A stretch of DNA of 64,000 nucleotides from Bacteroidales bacterium (GCA_040768485.1 JAXGMU010000002.1:40285-104284), one strand, 5' to 3'; positions 8,685 to 64,000 are shown, numbered from the stretch's first letter. The notes: generated by a model from the letters alone, not told the origin. Numbers and translations: made by a program.

Positions 8685-8692
8685 TATTTTTG
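8685..8692 (+). promoter_or_regulatory. candidate -7 promoter box (TATTTTTG) for the trehalose gene
   Basis: TAnnTTTG match 11 nt upstream of the ATG at 8703. Confidence 0.3.
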
Positions 8693-14718: not shown

Positions 14719-14726
14719 TATCTTTG
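14719..14726 (+). promoter_or_regulatory. candidate -7 promoter box (TATCTTTG)
   Basis: TAnnTTTG match just upstream of the EEP gene. It favours the downstream ATG at 14749 as the real start. Confidence 0.3.
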
Positions 14727-42353: not shown

Positions 42354-42361
42354 TATCTTTG
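42354..42361 (+). promoter_or_regulatory. candidate -7 promoter box (TATCTTTG) of the eda-TRAP-xyl gene string
   Basis: TAnnTTTG match 47 nt upstream of the eda ATG at 42409. Confidence 0.4.
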
Positions 42362-47551: not shown

Positions 47552-47562
47552 ACTTTAAGAAA

Positions 47563-48894
47563 ATGGAATATTTGAAAGGAAACAAAGAGTACTTCCCGGG
47601 AATCGGGAGGATCAGATTTGAAGGCAGGGAATCGGACAATCCGCTGGCCTTCAAGTTCTATGATGAAAACAAGGTAATTGCCGGCAAGAGCATGAAAGAG
47701 CATCTGCGCTTCGCTGTTGCCTACTGGCACACCTTCTGCGGAACGGGACTGGATCCCTTCGGTCCGGGTACAAAGGATTTTCCCTGGGACAGGGGTAAAA
47801 CCGACCTGGACAGGGCAAGGGACAAGATGGATGCAGCTTTTGAGTTCATCACCAAACTGGGAATGCCCTATTTCTGCTTCCACGATGTGGACCTGGTAGC
47901 CGAAGGGAATTCGGTGCGGGAATACGAATCCAACCTCTCCAGCATGGTGGATTATGCCAGGCAGAAAATGGCCGATTCGGGTGTCAAATTGCTGTGGGGG
48001 ACCGCCAATGTCTTTGGCAACCCGAGGTACATGAACGGGGCGGCCACCAATCCGGATTTCAAAGTACTGCCCTGGGTGGCCACCCAGGTGAAGAACGCCC
48101 TGGACGCCACCATCGCCCTGGGCGGGGAGAACTATGTTTTCTGGGGAGGCCGTGAAGGGTATATGACATTGCTGAACACGCAGATGAAGCGCGAGCAGGA
48201 ACACCTGGCCCAGTTCCTCCACATGGCCAGGGATTATGCCCGCAGCAACGGTTTCAACGGTCCGTTCCTCGTCGAACCCAAACCCATGGAACCCACCAAG
48301 CACCAGTATGACTACGATGCGGCCACGGTAGTGGGGTTCCTGAACAAGTATGGTCTGGAAGGGGATTTCAAACTGAATATCGAGGTGAACCATGCCACCC
48401 TGGCCGGACACACATTTCAACACGAATTGCAGGTGGCGGTGGACAATGATCTCTTCTGCAGCATTGATGCAAACAGGGGGGATTATCAGAACGGATGGGA
48501 CACCGACCAGTTCCCCATTGACCTGTACGAGCTGGTGGAGGCCATGCTGGTGATCCTGGAAGCCGGGGGATTCAAATCCGGAGGCATCAATTTCGATGCA
48601 AAAACCCGCAGGAACAGCACCGACCTGGAAGATATCTTCATCGCGCATATTGCGGGTATGGATGCATTTGCCAGGGCTTTCGAGATCACCCTGGATATCC
48701 TGGAAAATTCACCCTACCGGAAGATGAGGGCTGAGCGGTATGCCTCCTTTGACGCGGGACCGGGTGCCAGGTTCGAGAAAGGGGAGATGTCCCTCGAAGA
48801 GCTGAAGGAACTGGTTACCACGCTGGGCCATCCGGAACAGCTTTCCGGGAAACAGGAGCTATATGAAGCCATCATCAACCAGTACATCCGCTGA
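47563..48894 (+). CDS. xylA: xylose isomerase
   Basis: [41 protein letters not shown] and [10 protein letters not shown] motifs. Confidence 0.95.
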
Positions 48895-50065
48895 TTTTCG
48901 CCGGGAGGAAAGTAGCGGGAGCAGATACAGGATCGGCATCGCGGGACCCGGAAAGGTGGCCCACCTTCATGCAAAGGCGATCGGTGAGATAGGGAATGCT
49001 GTCCTCGCCGGGGTCTGTTCCAGGTCAATGTCGCGGGCCACTACTTTCGCTTCCCTTTACGGCGCCCGGTCCTATAACGATGTGGGAGGGATGGTCCGGA
49101 CAGAGAAGCTGGATCTGGTGATCATCTGTACACCCCATCCCAACCACCTTGAACCGGCCCTGCAGGCCCTGGAGGCCGGAGCACACCTCCTGGTGGAAAA
49201 ACCCCTGGCTTCCACGCTCCAGGATTGCGATGCCATGATCGGAGCAGCCGCGAAGGCGGGCCTGAAACTGGGAGTGGTGAGCCAGCGCCGCTGGTACCCT
49301 CCCACCCTGCGCGTCAAAAAAGCCATTGATGAAGGTAAGATCGGGAAGCCCGTCCTGGGAACGGTCCAGATGCTCGGATGGAGGGATGAAGCATATTACC
49401 GCTCTGATCCGTGGAGGGGTTCCTGGAACATGGAAGGAGGCGGTGTGATGGTCAACCAGGCCCCGCACCAGCTGGACCTGCTGAGCTGGTTGATGGGACC
49501 GGCGGAAGAGTTGTTCGGAACATGGGATAACCTGAACCATCCGTATATCGAAGTGGAGGATACGGCCCTGGCCATTGTCAGGTTCAGGAGCGGCGCCCTG
49601 GGGAACATCATACTTTCCAACTGCCAGAAACCGGGCATCTACGGGAAGATCCACGTTCACGGAGAAAACGGGTCCACGGTGGGTGTGCAGACCGAGGGAG
49701 GTTCCATGTTCATTGCAGGCATGACCCCCATCTCCGAGCCCCCGGTAAACGACCTGTGGACCGTCCCCGGAGAAGAGAAGATGCTGGATGGATTTATCAG
49801 AGAGGACCGGGAGCTGTTCGAACGGATCGACCCGATGGTCCATTTCATCCGGCTGCAGATCCAAGAGTACCTGGATGCGCTGGAAACCGGGCGGGATCCG
49901 CTGGTCACCGGGCAGGAAGGACGCAAAACCGTTGAGCTTTTTACGGCCGTTTACCGGTCGGCAAGGGACCGGGTGCCGGTGAAATTCCCGCTGGAGCCGG
50001 AAACCGGCCGCAGTGACTTTAACGGCCGCCTTTCTGCCGGGGGACAAACATTCAGAACAGCCTGA
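48863..50065 (+). CDS. Gfo/Idh/MocA-family oxidoreductase
   Basis: [12 protein letters not shown] Rossmann start and EKP motif (LLVEKPLA). The only canonical in-frame start (ATG at 48863) overlaps the last 32 nt of xylA. The true start is uncertain. Confidence 0.75.
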
Positions 50066-51419
50066 CCACCCCGTAGACCCCCACCAGAATGATGGCAATG
50101 CAGCTGACCACAAGGGCCACATTGTAAAACCGCCCCGGCCGGAGCATCTGCTCCCTTGTCCCGAACCTGAAGTAAAAACCGGCAATCACCACGATCACCA
50201 GCATGATGAAGGTGGCAATGCCTCCGATGGTGACCATCAGCACCGGGAGCTTCACCACAAGAAAAGCAACGGTCCACAGCAGGGGAAAGACAACGGCCAG
50301 GATCCGGATGGTCCGCAACCGGATCCGCAGGTTGCTGAAGTCAATCCATTTCACCACACCGAAAAGGTCCGAAAAGACCCTGGTGCGGATGGCCAGTGCC
50401 GCAAAGAGTGTGGAAAAAAGGACCACGAAGGAACCTGCCAGGAAAATATTTTTTGCTGCGGGTCCTACCGAGTCTGTGTAGATCCTGGAAAGGGTCTCGA
50501 TCATTTCATACCCTTCCGGGATTTCTCCCCGCCGGTGAAGAATGGCTGCCCCGAGGACAAAAAAAGCCGCGGTGACGACGGTGTAAACGATCATGGAAAG
50601 GAACGCATCCAGGTACATCACGCGGATCCATCCGCTGGCCCGTGCGCTCCACCCCGGATCATTCCGGAGAGACCCGGAAAACCTGGCATACCCTTTCTCA
50701 ATGCACCAGTAGTTGTAGGACAGGATCTCATCCCCGCCCACGCCCGTCAAACCGAATGCGGCCAGTGCAAAGCCCACCGTTCCCGCCGGAAGCCTGAAGG
50801 AGAGCCCACCGCCCAGATCGGCCAGCGTGATGGAAAAGGCGGTTCGCTGGACCATCACAAGCGCCAGGATCGTGAAGAGCACGAAAAAACCCATGAAAAA
50901 CAGGGAGATCTTTTCAACCAGCCCGTAATAGCCGAAGAGCATAATGGTGATAACCACAATGGCTGTCAGGATGGTCCAGCCGCCCACGGATACGGGGGGA
51001 AAGGCCATGTGGAGGATCATGGCAACCCCGCCGATGATCCCGCCCAGCTGCAGCGGCTTGAAAATCCACAACACCAGCCAAGCCCAGACTCCCCAGCTGG
51101 CCCTGCTTTTACCGAAGCGCGGACCCGGAAGCCGGTTCATCATCTGCATGGCCGATGTGCCCCTGATGATGGATTGGCGCCCGAACTCCAGCTGAAGGGT
51201 GATTTTAACCAGACAGCTTACCAGGATGACCCAGAGGGTCACAAAACCCGCCTTGGCGCCCAGGGTGGTTGTGGCGATCAGCTCTCCGGATCCGACCACC
51301 GATGCAGAAAGGATGAATCCGGGCCCCAGAAATCTCACTCTGCCGAAAAAACTGCGTGGGGGATCCAGAATGGCCGATTCATCAACCAGGTAGGGGTCCG
51401 TGGTGATCGCTTTTTTCAT
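50052..51419 (-). CDS. Nramp-fold (LeuT-like) membrane transporter with a non-canonical TM1 motif
   Basis: 455 aa and about 11 TM segments. The N-terminal LGPGFILSASVVGSGELIATT aligns to the Nramp GPGFL...DPGN region, but DPGN is replaced by GSGE. Confidence 0.65.
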   Translation of the reverse strand: MKKAITTDPYLVDESAILDPPRSFFGRVRFLGPGFILSASVVGSGELIATTTLGAKAGFVTLWVILVSCLVKITLQLEFGRQSIIRGTSAMQMMNRLPGPRFGKSRASWGVWAWLVLWIFKPLQLGGIIGGVAMILHMAFPPVSVGGWTILTAIVVITIMLFGYYGLVEKISLFFMGFFVLFTILALVMVQRTAFSITLADLGGGLSFRLPAGTVGFALAAFGLTGVGGDEILSYNYWCIEKGYARFSGSLRNDPGWSARASGWIRVMYLDAFLSMIVYTVVTAAFFVLGAAILHRRGEIPEGYEMIETLSRIYTDSVGPAAKNIFLAGSFVVLFSTLFAALAIRTRVFSDLFGVVKWIDFSNLRIRLRTIRILAVVFPLLWTVAFLVVKLPVLMVTIGGIATFIMLVIVVIAGFYFRFGTREQMLRPGRFYNVALVVSCIAIILVGVYGVVRLF

Positions 51420-51451
51420 CTGTACCGAAGGATGGCCGGCAGAATTCCTGA

Positions 51452-52525
51452 CTACCTCCTGACCCGGGCGTTCCCTTCCCAGATGCTCCAGATCTGTTCT
51501 TCATCGGCCGGCTGTGCATAATCGGTCTCCAGGGTGGTGACCAGCGCACCGCTGGCCCAGCCGAACCGGATCCATTTCCCGGAATCCCATCCCCTCAGAA
51601 TGGCATACAGCATCCCTGCCACAAAACCGTCCCCCCCGCCGATGCGGTCGAACACATAGATGTCCCTTGGCTCCACCACGTGCCAGTTCCCGTTTTCCCA
51701 CAAAATGGCGCCCCACAGGTGCTGGTTTGTACTGACCACTTCACGGAGGGTGGTGGCAAACACGGTAGTGCCGGGAAAGGTTTTGCGTGCCCTGTCGATC
51801 ATCCCTTTGAACCCGTCTATTTTCGTTGAAAGGTCCTTTCCTCCGGCCTCAGGGCCCTCGATGCCCAGGCAGAGCTGAAAATCCTCTTCGTTTCCGATGA
51901 GCACATCTGAAACGGATGCGATCCCGGCAAATATCCCGTGCAGTTCCTCTTCCCTTCCTTTCCAGAAGGAGGCCCTGTAATTCAGATCAAACGAGATCCG
52001 GGTGCCGTATTTCTTCGCCAACCGGGCCAGCTCCAGGCAGAACTGTCCGGTTTCCGGTGAAAGCGCTGCGATGAGTCCCGACATGTGCACGATCTGTGCC
52101 CCTTCACTACCGAAAATACGGTCAAGGTCAAAATCCTTCACGTTCAGGGTCCTCCCCACCTCCCCCGCCCGGTCGTTCTGCACCCGCGGGCCCCGCGAGC
52201 CGTAACCCCGGTCGGCGATGTTGATCTGGTGCCTGTATCCCCAGGGGCCGCCCTGGTCAACTTCCGCTCCCTCGAAATCCATGTGCCGTGCGGCCAGGTT
52301 GTCCCTGATCATCCTGGCGATGGGACTCCCCTTTACAAATGTGGTAAGCACCTTCACCGGCAGTCCCAGGTAGGAGGAAACACTGCCCACGTTGGACTCG
52401 GCACTGGTGACCTGCATTTTGAACATGTCGCTTGTGTGGACCGGCTGCCCGTTCACGGGCGTGATCCGGATCCCCATGCTGGTGGGGATTACCATTGCAT
52501 ATTTTGCATCCTTTCGTAATTCCAT
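51452..52525 (-). CDS. PfkB-family sugar kinase, divergent KdgK paralogue
   Basis: DLNYR, GNEEDF and the ATP-site DRIGGGDGFVAG motifs. The N-terminal substrate lid differs from the upstream paralogue. Confidence 0.75.
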   Translation of the reverse strand: MELRKDAKYAMVIPTSMGIRITPVNGQPVHTSDMFKMQVTSAESNVGSVSSYLGLPVKVLTTFVKGSPIARMIRDNLAARHMDFEGAEVDQGGPWGYRHQINIADRGYGSRGPRVQNDRAGEVGRTLNVKDFDLDRIFGSEGAQIVHMSGLIAALSPETGQFCLELARLAKKYGTRISFDLNYRASFWKGREEELHGIFAGIASVSDVLIGNEEDFQLCLGIEGPEAGGKDLSTKIDGFKGMIDRARKTFPGTTVFATTLREVVSTNQHLWGAILWENGNWHVVEPRDIYVFDRIGGGDGFVAGMLYAILRGWDSGKWIRFGWASGALVTTLETDYAQPADEEQIWSIWEGNARVRR

Positions 52526-52581
52526 TTTGCCTGAATTTATTGATGTTTAACTTCAATTCCTCTGTGATCCGGGAAACGGGG

Positions 52582-53682
52582 TCAGCGGACAACCCTGGCG
52601 GATCCGCCGCCTTTTACCTTTTCCACTTCTGCCAGTGTGGCCATGCTGGTATCGCCCGGTGTGGTCATGGCCAGCGCCCCGTGGGCAGCACCATATTCAA
52701 CCGCCTCCCGGGGATCTCCGGTGGCCATCATCCCGTAGATAAGTCCCGAGGCGAAGCTGTCCCCTCCTCCCACCCGGTCGAGGATCTCCAGATCCGGGCG
52801 GTGGGTGGCCTCGTAAAACTCCCCGTCATAGTAACAGATACCTCCCCAGGAATTGACGGTTGCCGTCTTCACGGTGCGGAGGGTGGTGGCGATCATCCTG
52901 AAATTGGGGAATGTTTTGATCACATTCAGGATCATTTTTTTGTAACTGTCGGTTTCAAGATTGGAGAGGTTCTGATCCACTCCTTCCACCTCGAATCCCA
53001 GGCCTGCCGTAAAATCTTCTTCATTGCCGATCATCACGTCCACATAGGGTGCCAGTCTCCGGTTCACCTCCCTGGCTTTTTCGATCCCCCCGATGGCTTT
53101 CCAGAGGGAGGGCCTGTAGTTCAGATCATAGGAGATCACCGTGCCGTGCTTCCTGGCGGAGACCATGGCCTCTTCGATCACTTCGGGGGTACTCTCCGAG
53201 AGGGCAGCAAAAATGCCCCCCGTATGGAACCACTGCGATCCGAGCGTACCGAATATTTCATCCCAGGGGATATCTCCTTTCTTCAGCTGACTGGCTGCAG
53301 TGTTGCCCCTGTCCGACACACCCAGGGCGCCCCTGATCCCGTACCCCCTTTCGGTAAAGTTCAATCCGTTCCTGACGGTCCGCCCGATCCCGTCGTATGG
53401 GACCCATTTAATATGATCCACCCCCACACCCCCCTGCATGATGAAATCCTCCACCAGCCGGCCCACCGCGTTATCTGCAAATGCGGTGACCACCGCTGTG
53501 GGCAGGCCGAAACATTTCCGGAGCCCCCGGGATACATTGTATTCCCCGCCGCCTTCCCAGACCCGGAACTGTCGGGCCGAACTGATCCGGTTCTCCCCGG
53601 GATCCAGGCGGAGCATGACTTCGCCGAGTGATACGCAGGCATACCTGCAGTCTTCGAGATGTTTGATTTCGAGCTTTGGCAT
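52582..53682 (-). CDS. kdgK: 2-dehydro-3-deoxygluconokinase (PfkB family)
   Basis: SLGEVMLRL, GGGEYNV, DLNYRPSLW and DRVGGGDSFASG motifs. The start is set at the ATG at 53682. Confidence 0.8.
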   Translation of the reverse strand: MPKLEIKHLEDCRYACVSLGEVMLRLDPGENRISSARQFRVWEGGGEYNVSRGLRKCFGLPTAVVTAFADNAVGRLVEDFIMQGGVGVDHIKWVPYDGIGRTVRNGLNFTERGYGIRGALGVSDRGNTAASQLKKGDIPWDEIFGTLGSQWFHTGGIFAALSESTPEVIEEAMVSARKHGTVISYDLNYRPSLWKAIGGIEKAREVNRRLAPYVDVMIGNEEDFTAGLGFEVEGVDQNLSNLETDSYKKMILNVIKTFPNFRMIATTLRTVKTATVNSWGGICYYDGEFYEATHRPDLEILDRVGGGDSFASGLIYGMMATGDPREAVEYGAAHGALAMTTPGDTSMATLAEVEKVKGGGSARVVR

Positions 53683-53711
53683 TGAACAGGATTTTTTACG
53701 TTTCAGAAACC

Positions 53712-53719
53712 CAAATTTA
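53712..53719 (-). promoter_or_regulatory. candidate -7 promoter box (TAAATTTG on the minus strand) for the kdgK pair
   Basis: The reverse complement of CAAATTTA gives a TAnnTTTG match, about 30 nt upstream of the ATG at 53682. Confidence 0.35.
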
Positions 53720-53775
53720 CAATTCCCATCCCACAGTTCCATAGATATCCTTCGATATCGTCCTTATTAAATCTC

Positions 53776-53783
53776 TATATTTG
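53776..53783 (+). promoter_or_regulatory. candidate -7 promoter box (TATATTTG) for the acyltransferase gene
   Basis: TAnnTTTG match 21 nt upstream of the ATG at 53804. Confidence 0.35.
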
Positions 53784-53803
53784 GCCAATATTTGCTGCTG
53801 TAC

Positions 53804-55063
53804 ATGAGTGTATACAGGAGGGTCAAGAAGATCAGGTATCACCGCGGGCGGGTCCGGAGACAAGTATTCTCCAGGTTCAGGAAACAATTCCTGGATTCGG
53901 AGTACCCGGGGGACCCGAAAGCAGCCCGGCTGTTTGGGAAGGATCTGAAAAAGCTCTCGGCCAATTTCTCAAAACTGTTCTTCTTCCAGTATTCGCTTTG
54001 GAGCAGGTACAAATTCCACCGGCACATCTACCGTTCTGTGATCCTGAAGGGGGCCCGGGAAAATACCCTGCGTGATGTGGGAAAGGCTTCAAAGGAAGGG
54101 GTGCTGTTCTATTTCCCCAATCACCAGGCCCATATTGATTCCATGGTGATTTCCTGGGTGGCAAAACTGCTCCGCGTACCCCAGCCCATGTTCATCGCCT
54201 GGAACACCCTGGCCCGAAGAAGGTCCTCCTACCTGATGCCCCTGGTGAACAGTTGCCTGCTGGACAGGCAAATCATGGACACCCGTTTCAGTCCACCGGA
54301 TCCCTTCAGGAACACGAGAAACTATCGGGCAGGGTATACCAGGCTTTTCAATGAATACCTGAAACACATGCTCTCCGAAGGAGTGGATTCCCTGATCTAT
54401 CCGGAAGGAGGCCGCACATACTCCGGGAAGACGGGAGAAGCCAGGATCAGGAGGGTCTTTAAAAGCGCCCTGCAGGCACAGGATTCAATGAAAGACCGCA
54501 GGGAGATCTTTATTGTGCCTGTTTCGCTCACATACACCCTGGTCCCCGAGGCATCGCAGCTCATCCGGGCGTGCCACGAAGGCACATATCTTCCGCCCTC
54601 CAGTCTTTTTCACGACATGCAACACGGCGATGACCGGTATGCCGCTTTCAGGCCCGGGTATGAAACAAGGAGCGGTTTCCCTCTGATCCGGGAGTTCCTG
54701 GAGAAAAAAACGCCCATATACTGCGTGCTGGGAGATCCCATTTCACTCAGGGAGAATGCCCCCACGCTGGAACAATGTTTTGAACCCGTGAAACAGAACC
54801 TGAAGGTGCTGCCCCACCACTTCGTGGCCAGGCTGATCCTTTCCGGTAAAACCGCAGGCATGATCGATGCTGCCCGGCAGCTGCGGAACACGATCCCGGA
54901 ACACCTCCTGGATGAAGCTTTTTTTGATGAGCTGGGCCTCCGGGACATTCTCTCCGTCGGGCTGGATTTCTTTCGCTGCGAGGGAGCCGTCTCGGAAACC
55001 GGGGAGATCCGCGATCCGTTGCTCCTGGAATATTACGGCAACAAGTGCATTCCTAACTCCTAA
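53804..55063 (+). CDS. PlsB/GPAT-like glycerolipid acyltransferase
   Basis: HX4D motif NHQAHIDS and YPEGGRTYSGK (motif III), as in glycerol-3-phosphate/DHAP acyltransferases. The start is chosen downstream of the promoter box. Confidence 0.7.
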   Translation: MSVYRRVKKIRYHRGRVRRQVFSRFRKQFLDSEYPGDPKAARLFGKDLKKLSANFSKLFFFQYSLWSRYKFHRHIYRSVILKGARENTLRDVGKASKEGVLFYFPNHQAHIDSMVISWVAKLLRVPQPMFIAWNTLARRRSSYLMPLVNSCLLDRQIMDTRFSPPDPFRNTRNYRAGYTRLFNEYLKHMLSEGVDSLIYPEGGRTYSGKTGEARIRRVFKSALQAQDSMKDRREIFIVPVSLTYTLVPEASQLIRACHEGTYLPPSSLFHDMQHGDDRYAAFRPGYETRSGFPLIREFLEKKTPIYCVLGDPISLRENAPTLEQCFEPVKQNLKVLPHHFVARLILSGKTAGMIDAARQLRNTIPEHLLDEAFFDELGLRDILSVGLDFFRCEGAVSETGEIRDPLLLEYYGNKCIPNS

Positions 55064-55065
55064 CC

Positions 55066-56535
55066 CTAATCCAACATCGGATTGTCATAGAAGATCTTCT
55101 GCTTCATTTCAAAGTCATACAGGGTCACCTCCCGCAGGAGGTAATAGGATTCCCAGTAATTCTCGAGGGAGCTGATATAATCCCGTTTGGCTGCTTCCCG
55201 TTCGGCCAGTGAAATGTTCAGGTCGGTGATGCTGATCTCCCCGTTCTGGAACTTCTTCAAAGCGATCAGATACCCCTCCTCGGCCACCTTGTCGGCAGCC
55301 TCGGCCGTCTCGATCTGGTCCTTGATCAGGTTGAACTGCTCGACCATCACCACCACCCTTCTTTCGAAATCCTGCCGGTCCTGCTCCACATCGTAGATGA
55401 CCAGTTCCCGCTGCGACTCCGCCAATCGCACCTGCGATTCGCTCCTTCCCCAGTCCAGGATCGGGATGCTCAGGGAAAGGCTGACGTTCTGCTGCTGGTC
55501 AGGGTTTTCATACACCCCTCCCAGCATGTCGGCACTGTTGGACACTCCGTAACTCATGTTCAGGGTGGCACTCAGGCCGCTGTTCCTTTTTGCCTGGGTG
55601 AGGTCCCGCTCGGCCTGGATCAGCCTCCGTTCGAATTCGGGTGTTTCTTTCCGGTTCTCCAGGGCCTCTTCCAGTGCCTTCACCGGATCCACTTTGAACA
55701 GGAACATATCCAGCGGGATGATGAGCTCGATCTGCTGGTTCTGGTCCAGCCCGATGTACCGCTTCAGTTCGTAATCGGCGTTTTTCAAATCGATCCGCGC
55801 ATTGTTAAGTGCCTTCTGGGCATTGAAAACCGACAGCTGGATCCTGGCAAAATCATTCTCCGATATGGTTCCCAGCTCCTGTCGCACACTGGCGATCCGC
55901 AGGTTATCCCTGCTGTTCCTCAGATTGCTTTCGGCCAGGGCGTAATTGGTCTGGATCCTCAGGTACCTGAAGAACCTGGATGTGGCCTCGTATGAAATCT
56001 CCTCGATGGACTCAATGAAATTTTTCTGGGCCTCTTCATACACCAGGGGTTCGGTCATCCTGGCCCATTTCATCCAGTTATAGGCAAAAAGCGGCTGGGT
56101 GATCCCGACACTCACCGGGTAACCCGAAAAACCCGTGGTGCTGTTGTTGAAGTCCTGCAACCTCACAAGCCCTGAAGCGGCGTACACATATGCACCCATA
56201 ACAGGAATGGGCTGACTCAGGGCAACCTGTGCACTGGTTTCCAACTGGGTTACCTTGTTGAACACGATGCTCCCGTCGGGTTGTACAATGGGTTTGGTCT
56301 GGTTCTCAAAATCCGGGAGATCGCCCGACAGGGTGAGCTGGGGCCTGAACCGGGTCTGGTGGTTCTTCCACCGCCAGTAGTAATTCACATCACGGTTCTG
56401 CACATACTTTACCGCAGACGACTGATTGATGGCCAGATCCACCACGTTTCTCAGGCTCAGGGACACAAGGGAGTCCTGTGCGAACAGTCCCGCAGGCAGC
56501 GACAGCAGGACTGCATACAGGGCCCGTTTCCCCAT
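55066..56535 (-). CDS. TolC-family outer membrane efflux protein
   Basis: Signal peptide ending FAQDS. Two-repeat OEP layout (LSLRNVVDLAINQS..., coiled alpha-helical repeats). The start is set at the ATG at 56535. Confidence 0.85.
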   Translation of the reverse strand: MGKRALYAVLLSLPAGLFAQDSLVSLSLRNVVDLAINQSSAVKYVQNRDVNYYWRWKNHQTRFRPQLTLSGDLPDFENQTKPIVQPDGSIVFNKVTQLETSAQVALSQPIPVMGAYVYAASGLVRLQDFNNSTTGFSGYPVSVGITQPLFAYNWMKWARMTEPLVYEEAQKNFIESIEEISYEATSRFFRYLRIQTNYALAESNLRNSRDNLRIASVRQELGTISENDFARIQLSVFNAQKALNNARIDLKNADYELKRYIGLDQNQQIELIIPLDMFLFKVDPVKALEEALENRKETPEFERRLIQAERDLTQAKRNSGLSATLNMSYGVSNSADMLGGVYENPDQQQNVSLSLSIPILDWGRSESQVRLAESQRELVIYDVEQDRQDFERRVVVMVEQFNLIKDQIETAEAADKVAEEGYLIALKKFQNGEISITDLNISLAEREAAKRDYISSLENYWESYYLLREVTLYDFEMKQKIFYDNPMLD

Positions 56536-56545
56536 CAGCCTCCAT

Positions 56546-57757
56546 TTAAAAGTCCAGTTCCATGATTTCCTCCGGGGAAGAGATCGCTGACAGGACCACC
56601 TGTTCCCCTTCCCGGAGTCCTTCCACAATTTCCACATATTCTTCAGTTTTCAGTCCGGTTTTTATCTGCCGCAATTCCGCCTTCCCGTTTCTCAGCACAT
56701 AGACCGAATGGTCATTCCCCCGTCCGATGACCGGACCGTTGGGGATCCTCAGAACACTGTCCCTTTCAGCTTTCACGATTTCCAGGTCCACGTTCAGGTT
56801 CGGCCTCAGTTTGTAGTGGTTGCTCTCCCGGAGGTGGACGTCAAACTCGATCATCCGGTCCCGGATCACCGGGCTCACGGTACCCACTACCCCGGGAAGC
56901 TTGTCGGTATCGATGTTCACATATACCCGGGTCCCCGTTTTCACATCCTCGGAAAAATCATCCTCCACGGTTCCATGCACCTTAAAATTCGTCAGATCGG
57001 ACATCTCCACGAGAAGCCGGTCCGAGTTCACTTTCTCGCCCACTTTTCCCCTGATGGATAATATGATCCCGGCAGAGGGAGCCCGAATGATCATTTTGCT
57101 TAAAGCTTCTTCCCTGGCTGCCAGTTCCTTCTCCTGCATTTCGATCTGAAGGCGGAGTCCCTGCTCGTCTGCTTCCAGCTGCTGCAGTCTGATGGAATTC
57201 TTCTCTTTCAGCATGATCAGGTCCTTTTCGGCCAGTTCCAGTTCCTGTTTGGTCTTCTCGAAGCGGGCAGGAGAGATCCCCCCTACTTCGAGCAGCTGTT
57301 CCTGGTCGGCCAGCTCGGATTTAAGCGAAGCGATCGCCAGGTTCTTCACCTGCACGTTGTAATCCAGGTCAACCTTGACGCTCCTGGCGTTCAGCTGGTT
57401 TTTGTGCAGCGCGTTCTGCTTGACCTCCAACTGGTCCCGGATATTGTCTATCTCGTTCTGGATGGGGGTCGGGTCCAGGATGATGATCGGCTCGCCGGCA
57501 TCCACGTGACTTCCCACCTCCTTCAGGATCTCCTTGATGATGCTCGATGCAGGGCTGAGGATAATCACCTCGCTCTGGGGTTCCACCACTCCCTGACCGG
57601 GGAAGGACCTGATGACCCGCCCGATCTCCGCTTCCCCGATCCGCACCTCCTCGTTCTGTGATGATTTGGAGGCAAAGGGGACAAAAACGATCACCACAAC
57701 GGCAGCCAGCAGCAACAGCGGTATGCCGATGTACATCCCTTTACGAAAACCTGTCAT
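56546..57757 (-). CDS. membrane fusion protein / periplasmic adaptor (HlyD-MacA type), copy 2
   Basis: N-terminal TM anchor, lipoyl-like hairpin halves (VEPQSEVIILSP...AGEPIIILD ... IIRAPSAGII), a long coiled coil, and beta-barrel and membrane-proximal domains. The tracked TTG start at 57778 is possible. Confidence 0.85.
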   Translation of the reverse strand: MTGFRKGMYIGIPLLLLAAVVVIVFVPFASKSSQNEEVRIGEAEIGRVIRSFPGQGVVEPQSEVIILSPASSIIKEILKEVGSHVDAGEPIIILDPTPIQNEIDNIRDQLEVKQNALHKNQLNARSVKVDLDYNVQVKNLAIASLKSELADQEQLLEVGGISPARFEKTKQELELAEKDLIMLKEKNSIRLQQLEADEQGLRLQIEMQEKELAAREEALSKMIIRAPSAGIILSIRGKVGEKVNSDRLLVEMSDLTNFKVHGTVEDDFSEDVKTGTRVYVNIDTDKLPGVVGTVSPVIRDRMIEFDVHLRESNHYKLRPNLNVDLEIVKAERDSVLRIPNGPVIGRGNDHSVYVLRNGKAELRQIKTGLKTEEYVEIVEGLREGEQVVLSAISSPEEIMELDF

Positions 57758-57833
57758 GTCTGTTCTGGTATTTTTCAATCTGCTTCATTGCAAAACTTCT
57801 GTGAAACTGATCACGCTAAAATAGTAAACAAAT

Positions 57834-60524
57834 TTAAGACATTCTTCTGCGGTTCGGAACGAAAAGCAGAAAACCCGGGATGATCAGTCCCCCGCCCACA
57901 AATACGATCCACCAGGGCAGAAGCGGCGGGATTCCCAGGTGGGTGGTGATCCCCAGGATCTTGGACAAACCGCCGGGAAGGACAAGCAACTCGTTGTTCA
58001 AGGCCGTCAGGCTTTCCTCCAGTCCGAATATGAACAGGAGCGATCCCGCAATCAGCAACTGGAGCCCCAGTGCCATCAGGACCATTCCCGCAGAAGCCGA
58101 CCCGTTCCTCCGCATCCATCTCCGCCCTGCGATCACATATATCTGGAATTTCCTGAACAGCAGCATCACAAAAAGGGAGAGGAAAAGCATCCTGAAGAGA
58201 TCCGAAACCCAGAAGAGGTACCAGAACACCTGCGGTCCCCTGACAGCCACCACCCCCGTGACCAGCATCATGACCAGGATCTTCGGGGCCATCACTGAAA
58301 CCAGTATCTTCGGAAAGTTCCTCCCCGAGCCGAACACAAGCGACAGCACAACGGCAACCAGCAATCCCAGGCCGCCGATACACAGGGGAAAAAGCAGTGA
58401 AGCAAACGAGGAGAAAGACACCACCGCCAGCAGGTAAAGCAGGAGCAATATCAATGCCACCTGGCCGGTACCGTGGTAGGCGGTCAGGTCGCTGATGGAA
58501 CGCGGGCGGAACAGGGCATCGAAAAAGAGGGTGGCGGCAAACTTCCGGTGCCCCCTGTCCCTGATGAAACGCGGGATCCCCATGATCAGGAGGAACAGCG
58601 CAACGGCCAGGAATATCCTGGCACCGGCAACTGAGAGAGGGGTTCTCCCGGCAATCTTCATTCCGGTATCAACCTCTTCGAAGTCCATCCCCAGGGTATT
58701 CAGATCCCCGGCATATTTCTCCCGGTGAAAGGACCTGACTGCGCTGAACTGTCCCATGGCCAGTTTGTAAGCAGTCTCCGCTTGCGGATCTCCCTTTTCG
58801 ATCCACCGGTAATAATTCATGAAAAACTGCCTGTAATAGGCCAGCAGGCGGAGCAGTTCGATCTCATATTCGGCAGCCCCGATCAGTTGCTCGTATTCAT
58901 TGCGGTGGCCGGACACCCGATCCTTCGCCTCCAGCAGGAGATCTTTCATGACCACCGCCTCCCTCACCGCCCGGAAACCCTCGTCGATCACCTCCCCCAT
59001 TTGGTCACGGGTGATGAAGTAGATGTTGCTGAAGACGGCGCTGGAAGCACCCAGGATATCCCACTCGAAGATCCAGAGCATGGGAGGGGGCTCAAGCCCC
59101 AGCGCCCGCACATCGTACCTTGCAAAATCACTGATATAAAGACCCCTGCTTATAATTCCGGGGGACATGCGGAATGCTTCCGTCAGATTGGCCACCAGGA
59201 GGGGATCATCTCCGAAATAATCCCTGATCCACCTGATCGCAATGGTGTCCGCATGCTCGTAAGGATCCAGGAGCAGCTGTCCCGTGGCATAGGCATTGAT
59301 TTCATTGATCACATTGAAACCGTAAAACGGATAGATGATCATGGGGCCGGCCCTCAGCGGACCTCCGTATTGTGTCCATACCCAGGCACCTTCCATGCGG
59401 GGATTCTTTTCCACGAACGTCTGAATGGCTTTCTGATGCACGGGCGCCATGTAGTTGGGCAGCGAACCGAATCCCTCGAATTCCCGTTTTACCTGGAATT
59501 CTGCGATCCGGCGGTGTTCCCCCTGCAGCAGTGTGGGATTCAGCTCAAGCCAGCTGTAGAAATCCCCGGCGCAGTACTTGGTGGAAACCACCAGACGGTC
59601 GGATTGTACCTCCCCCAGGACGCGTTTGTATGTTTCGGGATTCGTATGCATATCCCCGATCTCACCCACTCCCACCGACCAGGTGCGGAAGATGATGTTC
59701 CTGTCATATTTTTCGGCAGCAGCCAGGAAGGCCTCCAGCATCAACCGGACCGCTTCGCCGGTCCTCACGCTGAGCTCACTTGTGTAATCCCAGCCCTGCG
59801 TGTTATAGATGGAGCCGGCCTCTCCGATGCGGAGGATGATCCCTTCGAGGTGGGGGAATTTTTCAAAAACCTCCTCCGCGGCCTTCCCGTAGACCTGCCA
59901 GAACGCCGGGTTTTCCGTATCCACCGGGCCGAATGTGCGGTTGAAATACTCCGACAGGGGCGGGGTCAGTGCCACCATATCGGTCCACAGGTAGCTTTTC
60001 ATTCCGTGGTCCGCCGCCGCCTGCATCAATTCGGCAAAGCGCCTGCTCAGCGTATCATGCCGGTCCCTGTAAACACTTTTCGTTCCGTATACCTGCCTTC
60101 CGTTGTCCACCAGGTCAAAATTGACACATTCGAGGAACCATGGCATGGCGACGGCATTGTATCCGTACGCGCCCATCTGCGCGGTGAAGCGATCGAACTT
60201 TTCATACTCCTGCCTGAATTGGGAAGTATCCGTGAAGGGGGGTGCCACCTGCCATACCTTTTCGAAGAAACGCTGGTGATGCGAGTAATCGGCTCCCCAC
60301 CCTGCCGTATCGGGAACAATTCCCACCCCTCCCATGTCCACGATCCGCAGCGGCAGCAGGAGGGAGTCTGCGCCGGGCATGGAGGTCACCTGCCCGGGAT
60401 CGGGCAGGTTCTTTTCCCGGTAGCTGATCCCCAGGACACCGGCGACCTGCTTTGCCGCAAAATACCCTGCGGCGAGACCCGCCCCCAGGATGAACAATGT
60501 CCCCAGAAAATTTCTCGCGGTCAC
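57834..60524 (-). CDS. 896-aa fusion: N-terminal signal anchor, GH67-like (beta/alpha)8 glycosidase-like domain, C-terminal 7-TM domain
   Basis: GTG start overlapping the upstream stop (GTGA). Successive motifs EGIILRIGEAG, IIFRTWSVG, VVSTKYCAGDF, AEFQVKREFEGFG, GAWVWTQYGG and IRWIRDYFGDD parallel the GH67 alpha-glucuronidase catalytic-domain motifs as recalled. Residues about 630-890 form roughly 7 hydrophobic helices. No Walker A. Confidence 0.7.
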   Translation of the reverse strand: MTARNFLGTLFILGAGLAAGYFAAKQVAGVLGISYREKNLPDPGQVTSMPGADSLLLPLRIVDMGGVGIVPDTAGWGADYSHHQRFFEKVWQVAPPFTDTSQFRQEYEKFDRFTAQMGAYGYNAVAMPWFLECVNFDLVDNGRQVYGTKSVYRDRHDTLSRRFAELMQAAADHGMKSYLWTDMVALTPPLSEYFNRTFGPVDTENPAFWQVYGKAAEEVFEKFPHLEGIILRIGEAGSIYNTQGWDYTSELSVRTGEAVRLMLEAFLAAAEKYDRNIIFRTWSVGVGEIGDMHTNPETYKRVLGEVQSDRLVVSTKYCAGDFYSWLELNPTLLQGEHRRIAEFQVKREFEGFGSLPNYMAPVHQKAIQTFVEKNPRMEGAWVWTQYGGPLRAGPMIIYPFYGFNVINEINAYATGQLLLDPYEHADTIAIRWIRDYFGDDPLLVANLTEAFRMSPGIISRGLYISDFARYDVRALGLEPPPMLWIFEWDILGASSAVFSNIYFITRDQMGEVIDEGFRAVREAVVMKDLLLEAKDRVSGHRNEYEQLIGAAEYEIELLRLLAYYRQFFMNYYRWIEKGDPQAETAYKLAMGQFSAVRSFHREKYAGDLNTLGMDFEEVDTGMKIAGRTPLSVAGARIFLAVALFLLIMGIPRFIRDRGHRKFAATLFFDALFRPRSISDLTAYHGTGQVALILLLLYLLAVVSFSSFASLLFPLCIGGLGLLVAVVLSLVFGSGRNFPKILVSVMAPKILVMMLVTGVVAVRGPQVFWYLFWVSDLFRMLFLSLFVMLLFRKFQIYVIAGRRWMRRNGSASAGMVLMALGLQLLIAGSLLFIFGLEESLTALNNELLVLPGGLSKILGITTHLGIPPLLPWWIVFVGGGLIIPGFLLFVPNRRRMS

Positions 60525-61831
60525 ATTTCCACCTGTTTCGTAATGGCTGATTTAATTGGATTCAGCACACGCTGAAGCATGCGCAGCTTATCGGTCAGGA
60601 TCTCGGCCTGACCCTGCATGTTCTGACTGAAAGGGATATCGATTTCGTAGAAGGTTCGCAGTCCCCTGGGAAGCTCCACTTCCACGGTGTAAAAATCGTC
60701 ATCGGGCACTTTTGAGATATTGCTTACATATCCCTTCACCATGCCGTATTCCAGGTGCGGGAAATTATCGAACTGGATATTCACCTGGTGCCCCACACGG
60801 ACCTTGCCCGCCCCTTCCACGGGCAGGCGGATCTTTCCCACCATGGAACCCGCTTCAGCGGGGATGATGGTGAGCACCTTATCCCCGGCCTTCACATTCT
60901 GGTTCTCGCTCCAGAAACGGGTAAAGGTCACCACCCCGCTGACCGGCGCTTTCAGCAAATAGTTCTGCTCCCAGGATGCGATGGAAGCTTTCAGGTTATT
61001 GAATGATTCCTCGAGTGTGTTCACGGTCTGTGACATCTGGTCGCGCTGTTGCAGTTCCAGATCCACGATCTGCTGCTCTGTCTGCGCGATGCTGATGTTG
61101 TTCTCCGCCATCAGGCTCACGATCTCCTGCCACTGGTTGCGCTCCTGCAGCATGGCGGAACGGGATTTTTCCAGGTCGGACTGGGACAGCACACCCTGTT
61201 CGTAGAGGGTGGCATCACGGTTGAACTGTCTCAGCGCCAGATTATAGGCTTCTTCCTGGATCCGGGCCCTCTCGGTAAGGCTCCTGGTGTAGGCCTGTTT
61301 CTTGTCCAGCTCGGATCGAAGCAACTCGATCCTACGCTGGTGGTAATCGATGCGTTTGAACTCCAGGTAATCCCGGTACGCCTTGAGAAAGATGGAGTAG
61401 TCCGACTGGATGGTCCCCAGCCTGGCATTTTTCAGCTCCGGCACTTCCCCGGTCACCTGCTCCACGGGAACACTGTCCAGGAACGCCAGTCCCTTTTTCA
61501 GCTGCATCACATCTTCGAATGCGGCCGGGTTTTCGATCATGGCCAGCACCGTCCCGGCGGATACCAGGTCGTTGTCGCTTATGAACAATTTTGTGATCTT
61601 CCCGTTGCTGCGGGCTTCAAGATCTGCAGGAGGATTGACGGAGGTGACCACGATGCTGGCCCGTTTGATGTCCGGATACCGGAAGATCCAGCTTCCGAAA
61701 ATGAGCAGGGCGAGCAGGAACAGGAAAAGAATGATCCCGTTGCGTGTCAGCCAGCCGGGAACCCTGCCGAGCATGTCCTCGATTTCCTGTGGCTGAAGCT
61801 CCACTTTTCCGGATGACCTTTCTGATGGCAT
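60521..61831 (-). CDS. HlyD-family secretion adaptor (type usually paired with peptide-exporting ABC transporters), copy 1
   Basis: Cytoplasmic N-terminus, one TM helix (GIILFLFLLALLIFGSWIF), lipoyl halves (ARSNGKITKLFISDNDLVSAGTVLAMIE ... LKAPVSGVV), and a coiled coil of about 150 aa. Confidence 0.85.
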   Translation of the reverse strand: MPSERSSGKVELQPQEIEDMLGRVPGWLTRNGIILFLFLLALLIFGSWIFRYPDIKRASIVVTSVNPPADLEARSNGKITKLFISDNDLVSAGTVLAMIENPAAFEDVMQLKKGLAFLDSVPVEQVTGEVPELKNARLGTIQSDYSIFLKAYRDYLEFKRIDYHQRRIELLRSELDKKQAYTRSLTERARIQEEAYNLALRQFNRDATLYEQGVLSQSDLEKSRSAMLQERNQWQEIVSLMAENNISIAQTEQQIVDLELQQRDQMSQTVNTLEESFNNLKASIASWEQNYLLKAPVSGVVTFTRFWSENQNVKAGDKVLTIIPAEAGSMVGKIRLPVEGAGKVRVGHQVNIQFDNFPHLEYGMVKGYVSNISKVPDDDFYTVEVELPRGLRTFYEIDIPFSQNMQGQAEILTDKLRMLQRVLNPIKSAITKQVEM

Positions 61832-61970
61832 GGCTTTGTGTATTAATTAAGGCTAAGATAACCCATCCATCTCAAAAAGTAAATGATCCCCGCGGGAGAT
61901 TGTTCACAATCGGGCCGGAAGACCCTCGTTTCCTGCATGAAGGAATGCGATTCAATAGATGTGAGACCGT

Positions 61971-63458
61971 TCAGGGGCACGGCCGGAACCTCATGTTATC
62001 CACGAACAGGTCCTGGAAGGAAGGATCCGATTCCAGGTTCACATGGGAGGTCCGCTCCAGGATGGCATCCGTCAGGGAAAGCTCCGAGAAAAGGAACATT
62101 TTCGCACCCATCAAGGCCGTGTTCCCCAGTTTGCGAAACGCAACCGGGGTAAAACCCAGCATGCCCGTGGCCGTCACGGAATCCATGCTGAGATAGCTCC
62201 CGAAAGCGCCTGCGATATAAACGGTGGCAATGTCGCCGGGTCCGATGGAGAGTTTCTTCATCAGGATCTCCACACCGGTGGCAATGGCTGCCTTTGCCAG
62301 CTGGAATTCCTGGATGTCTTTTTGTGTCAGGACCACCGGCCCGGCCAGGGTCACCTGTTCCCCAGCTCCCGCCAGCTGGCCGTATTCATCCAGCCACCCC
62401 CGCCCGAGCAGGACCGCCACCGCATCGATCAGTCCGCTTCCGCAGATGCCCCGCGGGGATCCGTTCCCGATCACTTTGACGCTCCAGCCTGCCGGACCGG
62501 GCTCCACGGAGGAAATGGCACCCGTGGTGGCCAGCATGCCCATGGAGATCCTGGCTCCTTCGAAAGCGGGACCGGCGGCAGTGGATGCGCACAAAAGCTC
62601 CCTGCGGTTCCCCAGCACAATCTCTCCGTTGGTCCCCAGGTCAATGAGCAGGCTGTATTCCTCCCCCTCGCAGATCCCTGTGGCCTGAATGCCGGCCAGG
62701 ATGTCGCTACCCACGAAACTGCCGATGGAAGGATAAAAGACCACTTCCCGGGTCGATAGGTCCCATCCCAGTTCAACGGGCAGAAACCGTGCTGCTCCCA
62801 GAAGGGGCGATTCAAAGGGATAAAATGAAAGCGGCTTCAGATCAAATCCGCAGAAGAAGTGTTGCATGACCGTGTTCCCCACGAGAATGATCCTTTCAGG
62901 GTCCTCTTTTCTTCCCGCCGTCATCCGGCCGATCATTCCGCCGATCTTTTTCCGGATCATCCCCGTCATTTCTGGCGCGTTGCCGGAAAGGGCTGCTTCC
63001 AGCCTGGAAATCAAATCACTGCCGTACTTCTGCTGGGGATTGAGGCCCTTTTCCATGGCCAGGATCCGCCCCTGCTGCAGATCCAGCAGCTGGGCCACCA
63101 GGGTGGTCGTGCCCAGGTCCACCGCCACACCCACTCCCTTCCGCGGTACGAATTCAAACGGCGTCTCATCCGCCTGGATAAGGGTTTCGTACTGATCCAC
63201 CCCGATGACCATGTCAGTGTGACACAGGCTCAGGCAGGCCAGGCGCCATTCCCTGCCCAGTCCCAGTTCAGCCAGCCGCTTCCTGTGAAAGTCATCCGTG
63301 TCGATCGCTCCCCTGATCAGCCTGACCCTGCATTTGCCGCAGATCCCCTTCCCGCCGCAGGGGAACTCAACCCCGTATTCGTGGAGCGCATCTTTCAGCG
63401 GGGAACCCTTTCTGACCCGGATGGTCTTTCCCAGCGGTTCCAGCCCGATGGTCACCAT
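61971..63458 (-). CDS. RACo-type corrinoid activation protein (2Fe-2S ferredoxin domain + ASKHA/DUF4445 ATPase)
   Basis: N-terminal plant-type ferredoxin motif CGGKGICGKCRV...C. The C-terminal body has DLGTTT, DLGTNGE and AGAFG actin-fold phosphate motifs. The ATG at 63458 is preferred over the tracked TTG at 63464. Confidence 0.8.
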   Translation of the reverse strand: MVTIGLEPLGKTIRVRKGSPLKDALHEYGVEFPCGGKGICGKCRVRLIRGAIDTDDFHRKRLAELGLGREWRLACLSLCHTDMVIGVDQYETLIQADETPFEFVPRKGVGVAVDLGTTTLVAQLLDLQQGRILAMEKGLNPQQKYGSDLISRLEAALSGNAPEMTGMIRKKIGGMIGRMTAGRKEDPERIILVGNTVMQHFFCGFDLKPLSFYPFESPLLGAARFLPVELGWDLSTREVVFYPSIGSFVGSDILAGIQATGICEGEEYSLLIDLGTNGEIVLGNRRELLCASTAAGPAFEGARISMGMLATTGAISSVEPGPAGWSVKVIGNGSPRGICGSGLIDAVAVLLGRGWLDEYGQLAGAGEQVTLAGPVVLTQKDIQEFQLAKAAIATGVEILMKKLSIGPGDIATVYIAGAFGSYLSMDSVTATGMLGFTPVAFRKLGNTALMGAKMFLFSELSLTDAILERTSHVNLESDPSFQDLFVDNMRFRPCP

Positions 63459-63467
63459 TTCCAATCC

Positions 63468-64000
63468 CTAAGCAGCAAATTGTTTCAGGTATTCCACGGC
63501 CCCGCGCGGATTCGGGGAATAGAAATCCGCTCCTATTTTTTTGCAGAAATCCTCGTTAAGCGGGGCTCCTCCCACCAGCACGGTGGTGTCGGAATGGGCA
63601 GCCTTGATCTCCCTGACGATCTCCTCCATGTTGGTCATGGTGGTGGTCAGCAAAGCCGAAAGTCCTACCACCGCACCGGGATTTTCCGCGATGGTCCTGT
63701 TAAAGGTGTCTTCGTTGACGTCCACGCCCAGATCGATGATGGACCATCCGCCGCCTTCGACCATCATGGCCACCAGGTTCTTTCCGATGTCATGCAGGTC
63801 TCCCTTCACCGTGCCGATGATGAACGTGCCTTTGGTCTTCACATCACCGGACTGGAAATATGGTTTCAGATGAACCATCGCGGCTTTCATCGCTTTCGCA
63901 GCCATCAGCATCTGGGGAACGAAGATCTTGTTCTCGGAGAATTTCTGCCCCACCCGGTCCATGGCGGGCACGAGGGCTTCCGTGAGCAGGTCGGTGGGCT
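63468..64000 (-). CDS. corrinoid (cobalamin-binding) methyltransferase-system protein, 5'-truncated by the window edge
   Basis: B12-binding DxHxxG motif (GDLHDIGKN), SxL (GLSALLTTT) and GG (VLVGGAPL). The reading frame stays open upstream of the tracked GTG to position 64000 (…PTDLLTEALVPAMDRVG, a helical cap domain). Confidence 0.85.
   Translation of the reverse strand, partial: PTDLLTEALVPAMDRVGQKFSENKIFVPQMLMAAKAMKAAMVHLKPYFQSGDVKTKGTFIIGTVKGDLHDIGKNLVAMMVEGGGWSIIDLGVDVNEDTFNRTIAENPGAVVGLSALLTTTMTNMEEIVREIKAAHSDTTVLVGGAPLNEDFCKKIGADFYSPNPRGAVEYLKQFAA

Follow-up and report, generated by a model that had tools for sequence, protein, structure and literature searches.

Where genes for periplasmic adaptors and TolC channels are found, a pump is usually assumed to be encoded nearby. 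The RND (resistance-nodulation-division) pump TriC is served by TriA and TriB, two paralogous RND-type adaptors, and in the cyanobacterial cellulose system an HlyD-like protein has a polysaccharide synthase as its partner. All characterised tripartite systems include an ATP-binding cassette (ABC), RND or major facilitator superfamily (MFS) transporter, and the operon of TriABC-OpmH combines two adaptor genes with a single outer-membrane channel (PMC8277102). In the BgsB-BgsA-TolC system, which handles mixed-linkage beta-glucan, the inner-membrane partner is a non-pump glycan synthase (PMC13438883). The operon described here lies in a 64-kb stretch of DNA (64,000 nucleotides, the window) from an uncultured Bacteroidales bacterium and encodes two adaptors, MFP1 and MFP2, a TolC-family channel, OMF, and an 896-residue membrane protein, GHTM, that stands between the adaptors. 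On balance it is likely that MFP1, MFP2 and OMF form a pump-less trio that serves one or more transporters encoded elsewhere, and that GHTM is a captured, optional accessory.

A first-pass annotation of the window had described four co-directional minus-strand genes, and open reading frame (ORF) calling confirms them. The whole block occupies positions 55066-61831 (-) with all four ORFs intact, and its parts are as follows.

60521..61831, minus strand: MFP1, 436 amino acids, a periplasmic adaptor of the HlyD/type I secretion system (T1SS) type with one N-terminal transmembrane (TM) segment at residues 32-50
60521..60524, minus strand: GTGA, in which the stop codon of MFP1 overlaps the GTG start of GHTM, GAAATGTGACCGCG
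57834..60524, minus strand: GHTM, 896 amino acids, GTG start; membrane anchor, GH67-like TIM barrel, helical bundle and 7-TM domain
56546..57757, minus strand: MFP2, ~403 amino acids from the ATG at 57757; MacA/RND/CzcB-type adaptor with an N-terminal TM anchor
55066..56535, minus strand: OMF, TolC-family outer-membrane channel, 489 amino acids, two OEP repeats

The junctions also agree with that annotation. The GTGA stop/start overlap is seen in the sequence, implying that translation of GHTM would be coupled to that of MFP1. The MFP2 ORF extends over 56546-57778 (-) and the start homologous to that of its relatives is the ATG at 57757, from which the GHTM-MFP2 gap counts 76 nt; the MFP2-OMF gap is 10 nt. 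The OMF ORF spans 55066-56637 (-) and its likely start is the ATG at 56535, which gives 489 amino acids, as called in the related locus L087. MFP1 matches HlyD_3 and Biotin_lipoyl_2 in Pfam and TIGR01843 type_I_hlyD in NCBIfam (E 1.5e-28), and MFP2 matches TIGR01730 RND_mfp with 116.9 bits (cut-off 94.9), HlyD_3, HlyD_D23 and additional models of the MacA, DevB, CzcB and YknX types. By these family models both proteins have the lipoyl, beta-barrel and hairpin domains of an adaptor. OMF features two stretches of PF02321 OEP (E 1.3e-39), the two repeats of a TolC-family channel, and matches TIGR01844 (E 2.7e-20).

No ABC, RND or MFS pump is encoded near the cluster. This had been stated for the cluster and its flanks, and scans of the window and of loci from the same Bacteroidales clade, which are readable to ≤10 kb around the operon, bear it out. 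In the window the ABC signature [LFY]SGG[QEM] is absent from all ORFs of ≥150 amino acids, none of the large ORFs elsewhere encodes an efflux pump or a transporter of RND size, and there are no paralogues of MFP1, GHTM, MFP2 or OMF. A search with a PCAT query (PCAT being the peptidase-C39 ABC exporter) found no ABC domain in 715 kb from 75 clade loci, no MacB/FtsX, RND or MFS gene stands beside MFP2 in any locus examined, and no ATPase domain is encoded in the cluster. Neither the window nor the clade loci encode an energised transporter (ABC, RND or MFS) with the adaptors. In a homologue search directed at the usual pump of MFP2, the matches listed were all clade members at ≥74% identity. As previously noted, the cluster encodes a single polytopic membrane protein, GHTM, and a survey of 74 loci revealed no second one that recurs within 6 kb of the operon. 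The additional statement that Walker motifs are lacking is true in substance, but GxxxxGK[ST] strings occur literally in both flanking genes: in an acyltransferase gene (53792-55063, +), within PEGGRTYSGKTG, which we take to be the acyltransferase block III motif, and in the RACo gene (61971-63464, -), at residue 7. Neither string is in an NTPase context and both were rejected as P-loops. In other loci, the gene that follows OMF was considered as the missing pump and rejected, as it encodes a 3-keto-disaccharide-hydrolase-domain protein.

The one polytopic protein, GHTM, has no Pfam match (E up to 0.01) and no NCBIfam match. The AlphaFold2 (AF2) model of the protein has a pLDDT of 84 and a pTM of 0.81. 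Hydropathy and the model place a TM helix at residues 6-24, a soluble part that reaches to residues ~610-630, and 7 TM helices thereafter; by the positive-inside rule the soluble part would face the periplasm. The following regions are distinguished.

59085..60362, minus strand: GH67-like (beta/alpha)8 catalytic domain, residues ~55-480, with invariant E235, D321, E342 and E348
58695..59042, minus strand: three-helix bundle, residues ~495-610, predicted periplasmic, from the AF2 model; kept in shortened variants
57858..58643, minus strand: C-terminal 7-TM domain, residues ~628-889, from hydropathy and a separate AF2 model
57927..58013, minus strand: membrane motif LNxELLVLPGGLSxILGITTHLxIP, residues 838-866, from family-invariant columns

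The invariant columns in the membrane motif are N843, P850, S854, G858, I859, T860, H862, L863 and I865. The 7-TM domain modelled alone by AF2 reaches a pLDDT of 85.5. A Foldseek search of this domain against the PDB gave a best E of 0.2 with a TM-score <0.3, and a Pfam search at E up to 10 with 17 C-terminal domains gave scattered chance matches only. The likeness to G-protein-coupled receptors that appears at E ≥0.2 and TM-score <0.3 was rejected as generic helical-bundle similarity. An exhaustive HMMER search of 1.84 billion representatives found the domain in 283 clusters, which consist of ~860-1050-residue proteins with the C-terminal domain, shortened variants and short fragments, with no other architecture evident. 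The 7-TM domain has no detectable relative outside the GHTM family. No known transporter family is matched by it in the Pfam, PDB-fold and HMMER searches.

Comparison of related loci reveals that the trio occurs with and without GHTM. Operon states were scored in loci with MFP1 at ≥67% identity, and the numbers are counts of loci, some of which are near-duplicates. State A, which consists of MFP1, full GHTM, MFP2 and OMF, is found in 18 loci and the window; state B, in which GHTM is replaced by a shortened form of 400-490 amino acids, is found in 21 loci; and state C, which consists of MFP1, MFP2 and OMF with no middle gene, is found in 14 loci. The shortened GHTM lacks residues ~45-480, the whole TIM barrel, but still has its anchor, helical bundle and 7-TM part; 15 of 18 shortened proteins no longer contain the family-invariant membrane motif. 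In state C the adaptor genes are separated by 29-210 nt (nine gaps measured). The GTGA overlap is kept in loci with full or shortened GHTM, and a relic ATGTGA junction persists in several state C loci. The four-gene block is kept while the flanking genes vary between loci.

Neighbour-joining trees were built for MFP1 and for the C-terminal part of GHTM. The three states are interspersed on both, and these trees agree that at least three independent deletions of the glycoside hydrolase (GH) domain are needed. Direct traces of gene loss are also present. The state C locus L091 and the state B locus L092 have 90% DNA identity on both sides of a clean 1.28-kb gap (L091:2240-2420 versus L092:5740-7200), where the first codons of the middle gene remain, and a remnant of the coding sequence for the N-terminal anchor TM is found in a further state C locus (L102:1916-2126). 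Within the crown clade, state C is by these sequence traces a derived condition. The most basal members, at 54-57% identity, are in state C, so the trio of MFP1, MFP2 and OMF is probably older than the capture of GHTM.

Selection on the genes was estimated from the ratio of nonsynonymous to synonymous substitution rates (dN/dS) by the Nei-Gojobori method. The ratio is 0.04-0.17 for MFP1, 0.04-0.18 for MFP2, leaving aside a near-identical pair whose few substitutions make it uninformative, and 0.04-0.15 for OMF. Full GHTM has a dN/dS of 0.10-0.19 and shortened GHTM one of 0.16-0.33. The values for MFP1, MFP2 and OMF are alike across states A, B and C, at a dS of ~1-2 and over dozens of loci, which indicates that loss of GHTM does not relax the constraint on the trio. 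Such unrelaxed constraint appears hard to reconcile with GHTM as the engine of the system. The pump-less architecture pointed out by the first-pass annotation is real and recurs in 18 + 21 + 14 loci, but its reading of GHTM as the partner of the adaptors is poorly supported, and the proposal of a new envelope-spanning machine driven by GHTM is not supported, as the protein has been truncated or deleted repeatedly while the trio is maintained at a dN/dS of 0.04-0.18.

The distribution of the GHTM family points in the same direction. The family numbers at least 959 proteins, with 524 genome loci confirmed. Among the best 80 of its genome loci, MFP1, MFP2 or OMF stands beside GHTM in 12, all of them at ≥55% identity and all from metagenome-assembled genomes of Bacteroidota. 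None of the remaining 68 loci has an adaptor or TolC neighbour. These unlinked loci come from other Bacteroidota, Actinomycetota (Microbacterium, Micromonospora), Anaerolineae (Chloroflexota), Myxococcota, KSB1 and Brocadiia, and many are from monoderms (Actinomycetota, Chloroflexota), which lack an outer membrane. In annotated examples the gene is solitary or stands among glycan-degradation genes (xylanase, rhamnosidase, GH88). Clustering of flanking ORFs, with crude ORF calls in the high-GC actinobacterial loci, revealed no conserved neighbour of the wider family outside the clade. Homologues of GHTM are generally unlinked to adaptors across the family (0/68), which counts against GHTM as the inner-membrane partner of the adaptors. 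A literature search found nothing specific on the GHTM family or on pump-less adaptor/TolC operons in Bacteroidota.

The relatives of MFP1 indicate what kind of partner it may have. In loci of relatives at 31-44% identity, each of the 11 with upstream sequence encodes an ABC exporter that the PCAT query matches, and in all six such loci checked with Pfam a peptidase-C39 ABC exporter directly precedes the adaptor. No peptidase-C39 ABC exporter stands beside MFP1 in the window or in any clade locus. The cytoplasmic N-terminus of MFP1 features the motif E(V/I)EDMLGRVPGW(I/L)TRNG; the pattern EVxDxLGxVPxWxxRxG...GSWxFKYPD is common to MFP1 and the PCAT-linked adaptors, and MFP1 groups with them. 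The motif and the TM segment are about equally conserved in states A, B and C. Because they are shared with the PCAT-linked relatives and kept in all three states, they suggest that MFP1 still has a conserved partner in the inner membrane or the cytoplasm, one that does not depend on GHTM. One PCAT-HlyD outgroup locus adjoins a lantibiotic dehydratase gene, and an ancestral role of the MFP1 family in the export of peptide natural products would fit this neighbourhood.

Two side observations concern MFP1 relatives. In the outgroup PCAT-HlyD loci L158:9251-12061 and L162:2638-4857 an M16 peptidase or a lantibiotic dehydratase is encoded beside the exporter. Additionally, a lone MFP1 homologue at 55% identity (L134:7947-9296) stands between gyrB and an FGGY kinase gene, and neither an ABC exporter nor MFP2 or OMF is encoded close by, so that orphan HlyD adaptors are also seen among the basal relatives of the clade.

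In the preferred reading, the conserved old core would be the pump-less trio MFP1-MFP2-OMF, which would supply the periplasmic and outer-membrane parts to one or two inner-membrane transporters encoded elsewhere, with MFP1 probably still docking on a PCAT-type ABC exporter. GHTM belongs to a widespread and normally solitary family, whose members are predicted to be anchored in the cytoplasmic membrane with the catalytic domain facing outward. In a single event at the base of a Bacteroidales sub-clade, GHTM would have been inserted between MFP1 and MFP2. It would act as an optional accessory that is co-expressed with an envelope duct, not as the partner that provides energy. The predicted order of loss is the GH domain, then the invariant membrane motif and then the entire gene, with the constraint on the trio unaffected.

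Several points weigh against this reading. Adaptors are normally encoded beside their pump, and we infer a pump in trans from loci read only to ≤10 kb around the operon; it would also be unusual for two adaptors to depend on an unlinked pump throughout an entire clade. The tree topologies come from plain neighbour joining and carry no support values. GHTM is the sole polytopic protein to recur within 6 kb of the operon in the 74 loci, a middle gene, wherever present, has its translation coupled to that of MFP1, and the three independent in-frame deletions of the GH domain each kept the anchor, the helical bundle and the 7-TM part. The shortened gene is an intact ORF with a dN/dS of 0.16-0.33 over a dS >1, unlike a useless passenger or a neutral pseudogene, which hints at a role of the membrane part in the operon.

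The same observations speak for the alternative that the 7-TM domain, with or without the GH domain, is a new inner-membrane partner of the HlyD-type adaptor in a TolC-linked machine that couples periplasmic glycan processing to export or import, which we nevertheless regard as unlikely. The block is preserved amid varying flanks with its GTGA coupling conserved, GHTM is the only polytopic protein encoded in cis, the membrane part has stayed in frame under purifying selection after at least three losses of the GH domain, and the BgsA synthase with BgsB and TolC is a precedent for a non-pump partner (PMC13438883). This alternative has to contend with the 14 loci in which the trio persists at unchanged dN/dS with no middle gene, with an N-terminus and TM segment of MFP1 that are about as conserved in these GHTM-less loci, and with the loss of the invariant membrane motif from most shortened forms; outside the clade, moreover, GHTM is unlinked to adaptors (0/68 loci) and present in monoderms, and the searches of the protein found no energy-coupling domain or transporter-like fold. 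More doubtful still is a related version in which the anchor, the bundle and the 7-TM domain were recruited as a platform that is neither ABC, RND nor MFS and the lineages without the gene switched partner. The recurrent in-frame retention of the membrane part would then result from this platform role. It is somewhat easier, though still rather improbable, to see GHTM as a functionally coupled accessory enzyme that trims a cargo glycan or clears a polymer of the periplasm or cell surface near the channel and, being of use in some niches only, is often lost; this account overlaps with the preferred reading of an optional accessory. The catalytic positions appear to be conserved, the full gene is under purifying selection within the operon, its arrangement predicts co-transcription and translational coupling, and glycan-degrading neighbours (a 3-keto-disaccharide-hydrolase-domain protein, GH127, a sulfatase, GH3 and a GH35-like protein) are found in several loci. 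These neighbours vary between loci, however, no cargo gene was identified, and the shortened forms retain the membrane part and not the enzyme.

It is very unlikely that the trio functions without any transporter in the inner membrane, as an unpowered or otherwise powered conduit or as a tether that spans the periplasm. Strong purifying selection on the trio, the absence of a cis pump in ~75 loci and the presence of a TM anchor in each adaptor are consistent with such an arrangement, but the characterised tripartite systems all have an energised ABC, RND or MFS transporter (PMC8277102), and the N-terminal motif that MFP1 has in common with its PCAT-linked relatives argues for a cytoplasmic or membrane partner. 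The first-pass annotation had also offered the reading of two orphan efflux fragments that flank an unrelated membrane enzyme, which is nearer to the evidence than its machine proposal, except that "fragments" is the wrong word for a trio conserved under selection. That these genes are decaying and non-functional is scarcely credible: the expected PCAT is indeed absent beside MFP1 and the middle gene has been degraded recurrently, but the ORFs are intact and the trio has a dN/dS of 0.04-0.18 at a dS of ~1-2 in dozens of loci. The pump-less trio with a transporter in trans and an optional GHTM is the reading retained below.

The catalytic domain of GHTM was identified by fold and profile comparison. 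The top Foldseek matches in the PDB are GH67 structures, with 1gql at E 3e-12 and the set of 1gql, 1h41 and 1l8n at 3e-12 to 1e-10 over ~610 columns; GH138 (6hzf, E 3e-10) comes next and then GH20, GH84 and GH89, with identities of 11-15%. A phmmer search of GHTM against PDB sequences gave no match, and only the family profile reached GH67, a profile of 31 members matching GH67 AguA at E 3e-8. GHTM features the GH67 layout of a (beta/alpha)8 domain followed by a helical C-terminal domain, as seen by Foldseek and in the AF2 model. In GH67 the catalytic acid is Glu292 and Asp365 and Glu393 act as a pair (GlcA67A numbering). The alignment to GlcA67A equates D321 with Asp365, E348 with Glu393 and E342 with Glu387; the invariant E235 falls one position off Glu292, in a weak-scoring stretch of the alignment. 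The curated GH67 models PF07488, PF07477 and PF03648 do not recognise GHTM of the window. Some of its homologues match PF07488 or PF07477, the latter weakly where a strength is given, and the GH67 N-terminal domain is found in no homologue, its place being taken by the TM anchor. On these comparisons the domain is a distant relative of GH67 that lies outside the family as defined by the curated models. It is probably an active hydrolase, and its substrate is perhaps a glycan that contains uronic acid.

Two further features lie in the non-coding parts of the locus.

57814..57836, minus strand: intergenic element TAAATTTGTTTACTATTTTAGCG upstream of MFP2, a diverged copy of ATATGTTTTATAACTTGCG that overlaps TAAATTTG
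61886..61900, minus strand: terminator-like hairpin between the RACo gene and MFP1, a pattern match only

The hairpin suggests that MFP1 may begin its own transcription unit. An internal promoter motif had been proposed in the gap between GHTM and MFP2, and TAAATTTG is present at 57829-57836 (-); the motif alone proves nothing, because the pattern TAnnTTTG is not enriched in the window, with 20 found against 15.1 ± 4.0 expected. The exact TAAATTTG is not kept in related loci. What is conserved is ATATGTTTTATAACTTGCG, a sequence of ~17 nt that is near-invariant ~50 nt 5' of the MFP2 ATG in all three operon states. It is present in L005, L091, L099, L114, L118 and ~35 further loci, where the neighbouring coding sequences have a dS >1, and makes the element upstream of MFP2 a candidate internal promoter or operator. 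The element has no Rfam match, the sole Rfam match across the cluster is a long non-coding RNA at E 0.61 that is deemed meaningless, and a sigma-70 promoter scan gave background level. Elsewhere in the window TAnnTTTG is found 15-55 nt upstream of ORF starts at 199-206, 8685-8692, 14719-14726, 42354-42361 and 53776-53783 (+), placements that are consistent with the use of Bacteroidota-type -7 promoter boxes in this genome.

The flanks are as the first-pass annotation described them, with an acyltransferase gene on the plus strand (PF01553, with a weak PlsB match) on one side and the RACo and corrinoid protein genes on the other. In many related loci, with and without GHTM, a gene for a ~460-residue protein with two 3-keto-disaccharide-hydrolase (DUF1080) stretches lies 3' of OMF on the same strand (L005:15571-16953; L084:14144-15529; L085:14145-15526, where it is split into three ORFs). 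In the window its place after OMF is occupied by the opposite-strand acyltransferase gene. The DUF1080 protein might be a cargo or an accessory. The operon is also often found beside genes for a corrinoid protein, RACo, a URO-D (MtaA-like) methyltransferase, a pterin-binding protein, FTHFS and MTHFR (window 61971-63971 (-); L084:1-9979; L086:575-7865), a gene set that points to corrinoid-dependent methyl transfer (demethylation) as a pathway by which these Bacteroidales may feed tetrahydrofolate. Beyond the acyltransferase gene, and adjoining it, the window encodes tandem paralogous PfkB-type sugar kinases (357 and 386 amino acids) and an Nramp-like transporter (455 amino acids) at 50052-53742 (-), a set that is conserved in L004. 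At 47524-48894 (+), after genes for an FGGY kinase and TRAP DctM, lies a 456-residue ORF for which Pfam gives no match at E up to 1e-5.

That strong selection maintains two different adaptors and a TolC channel throughout a clade, although no pump is encoded nearby, calls for caution with the automatic annotation of such genes as an efflux pump, and it raises the question of which unlinked transporters the trio serves. The GHTM family, with >500 loci in at least six phyla including monoderms, is a candidate for a new CAZy-type family and for a new membrane fold. Loci in which the gene is full, truncated or absent provide natural comparisons for the contributions of the enzyme and of the membrane domain.

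The locus can be compared with several known systems. MFP1 is of the HlyD/T1SS type and resembles the adaptors of PCAT/HlyD exporters in family and in its common N-terminal motif; unlike those systems, the window and the clade have no ABC exporter, no leader-peptide cargo gene was identified, and a second, unrelated adaptor and OMF follow. The models matched by MFP2 and the TolC-family OMF gene 10 nt after it recall MacAB-TolC, RND and heavy-metal pumps, however, no MacB/FtsX, RND or MFS gene accompanies them in the loci examined. As in TriABC-OpmH, the operon of the window has two adaptors and one channel, whereas its adaptors are of different subfamilies (HlyD/T1SS versus MacA/RND) and no transporter of RND size is present. 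The adjacency of an adaptor gene and a gene for a glycan-related membrane enzyme is shared with BgsBA-TolC, but GHTM is hydrolase-like, appears to face the periplasm and is dispensable for conservation of the adaptors, whereas the BgsA type is a cytoplasmic synthase of glycosyltransferase family 2 (GT2); no processive GT2 synthase or glycosyltransferase domain is found in GHTM or the cluster. With the GH67 enzymes AguA and GlcA67A, GHTM shares the TIM barrel, the helical C-terminal fold and aligned invariant residues, and it differs from them in its 11-15% identity, in the lack of the GH67 N-terminal domain and in being anchored in the membrane at both ends with a 7-TM domain. The cluster is best described as an atypical pump-less adaptor/TolC operon together with a new GH67-related membrane protein family.

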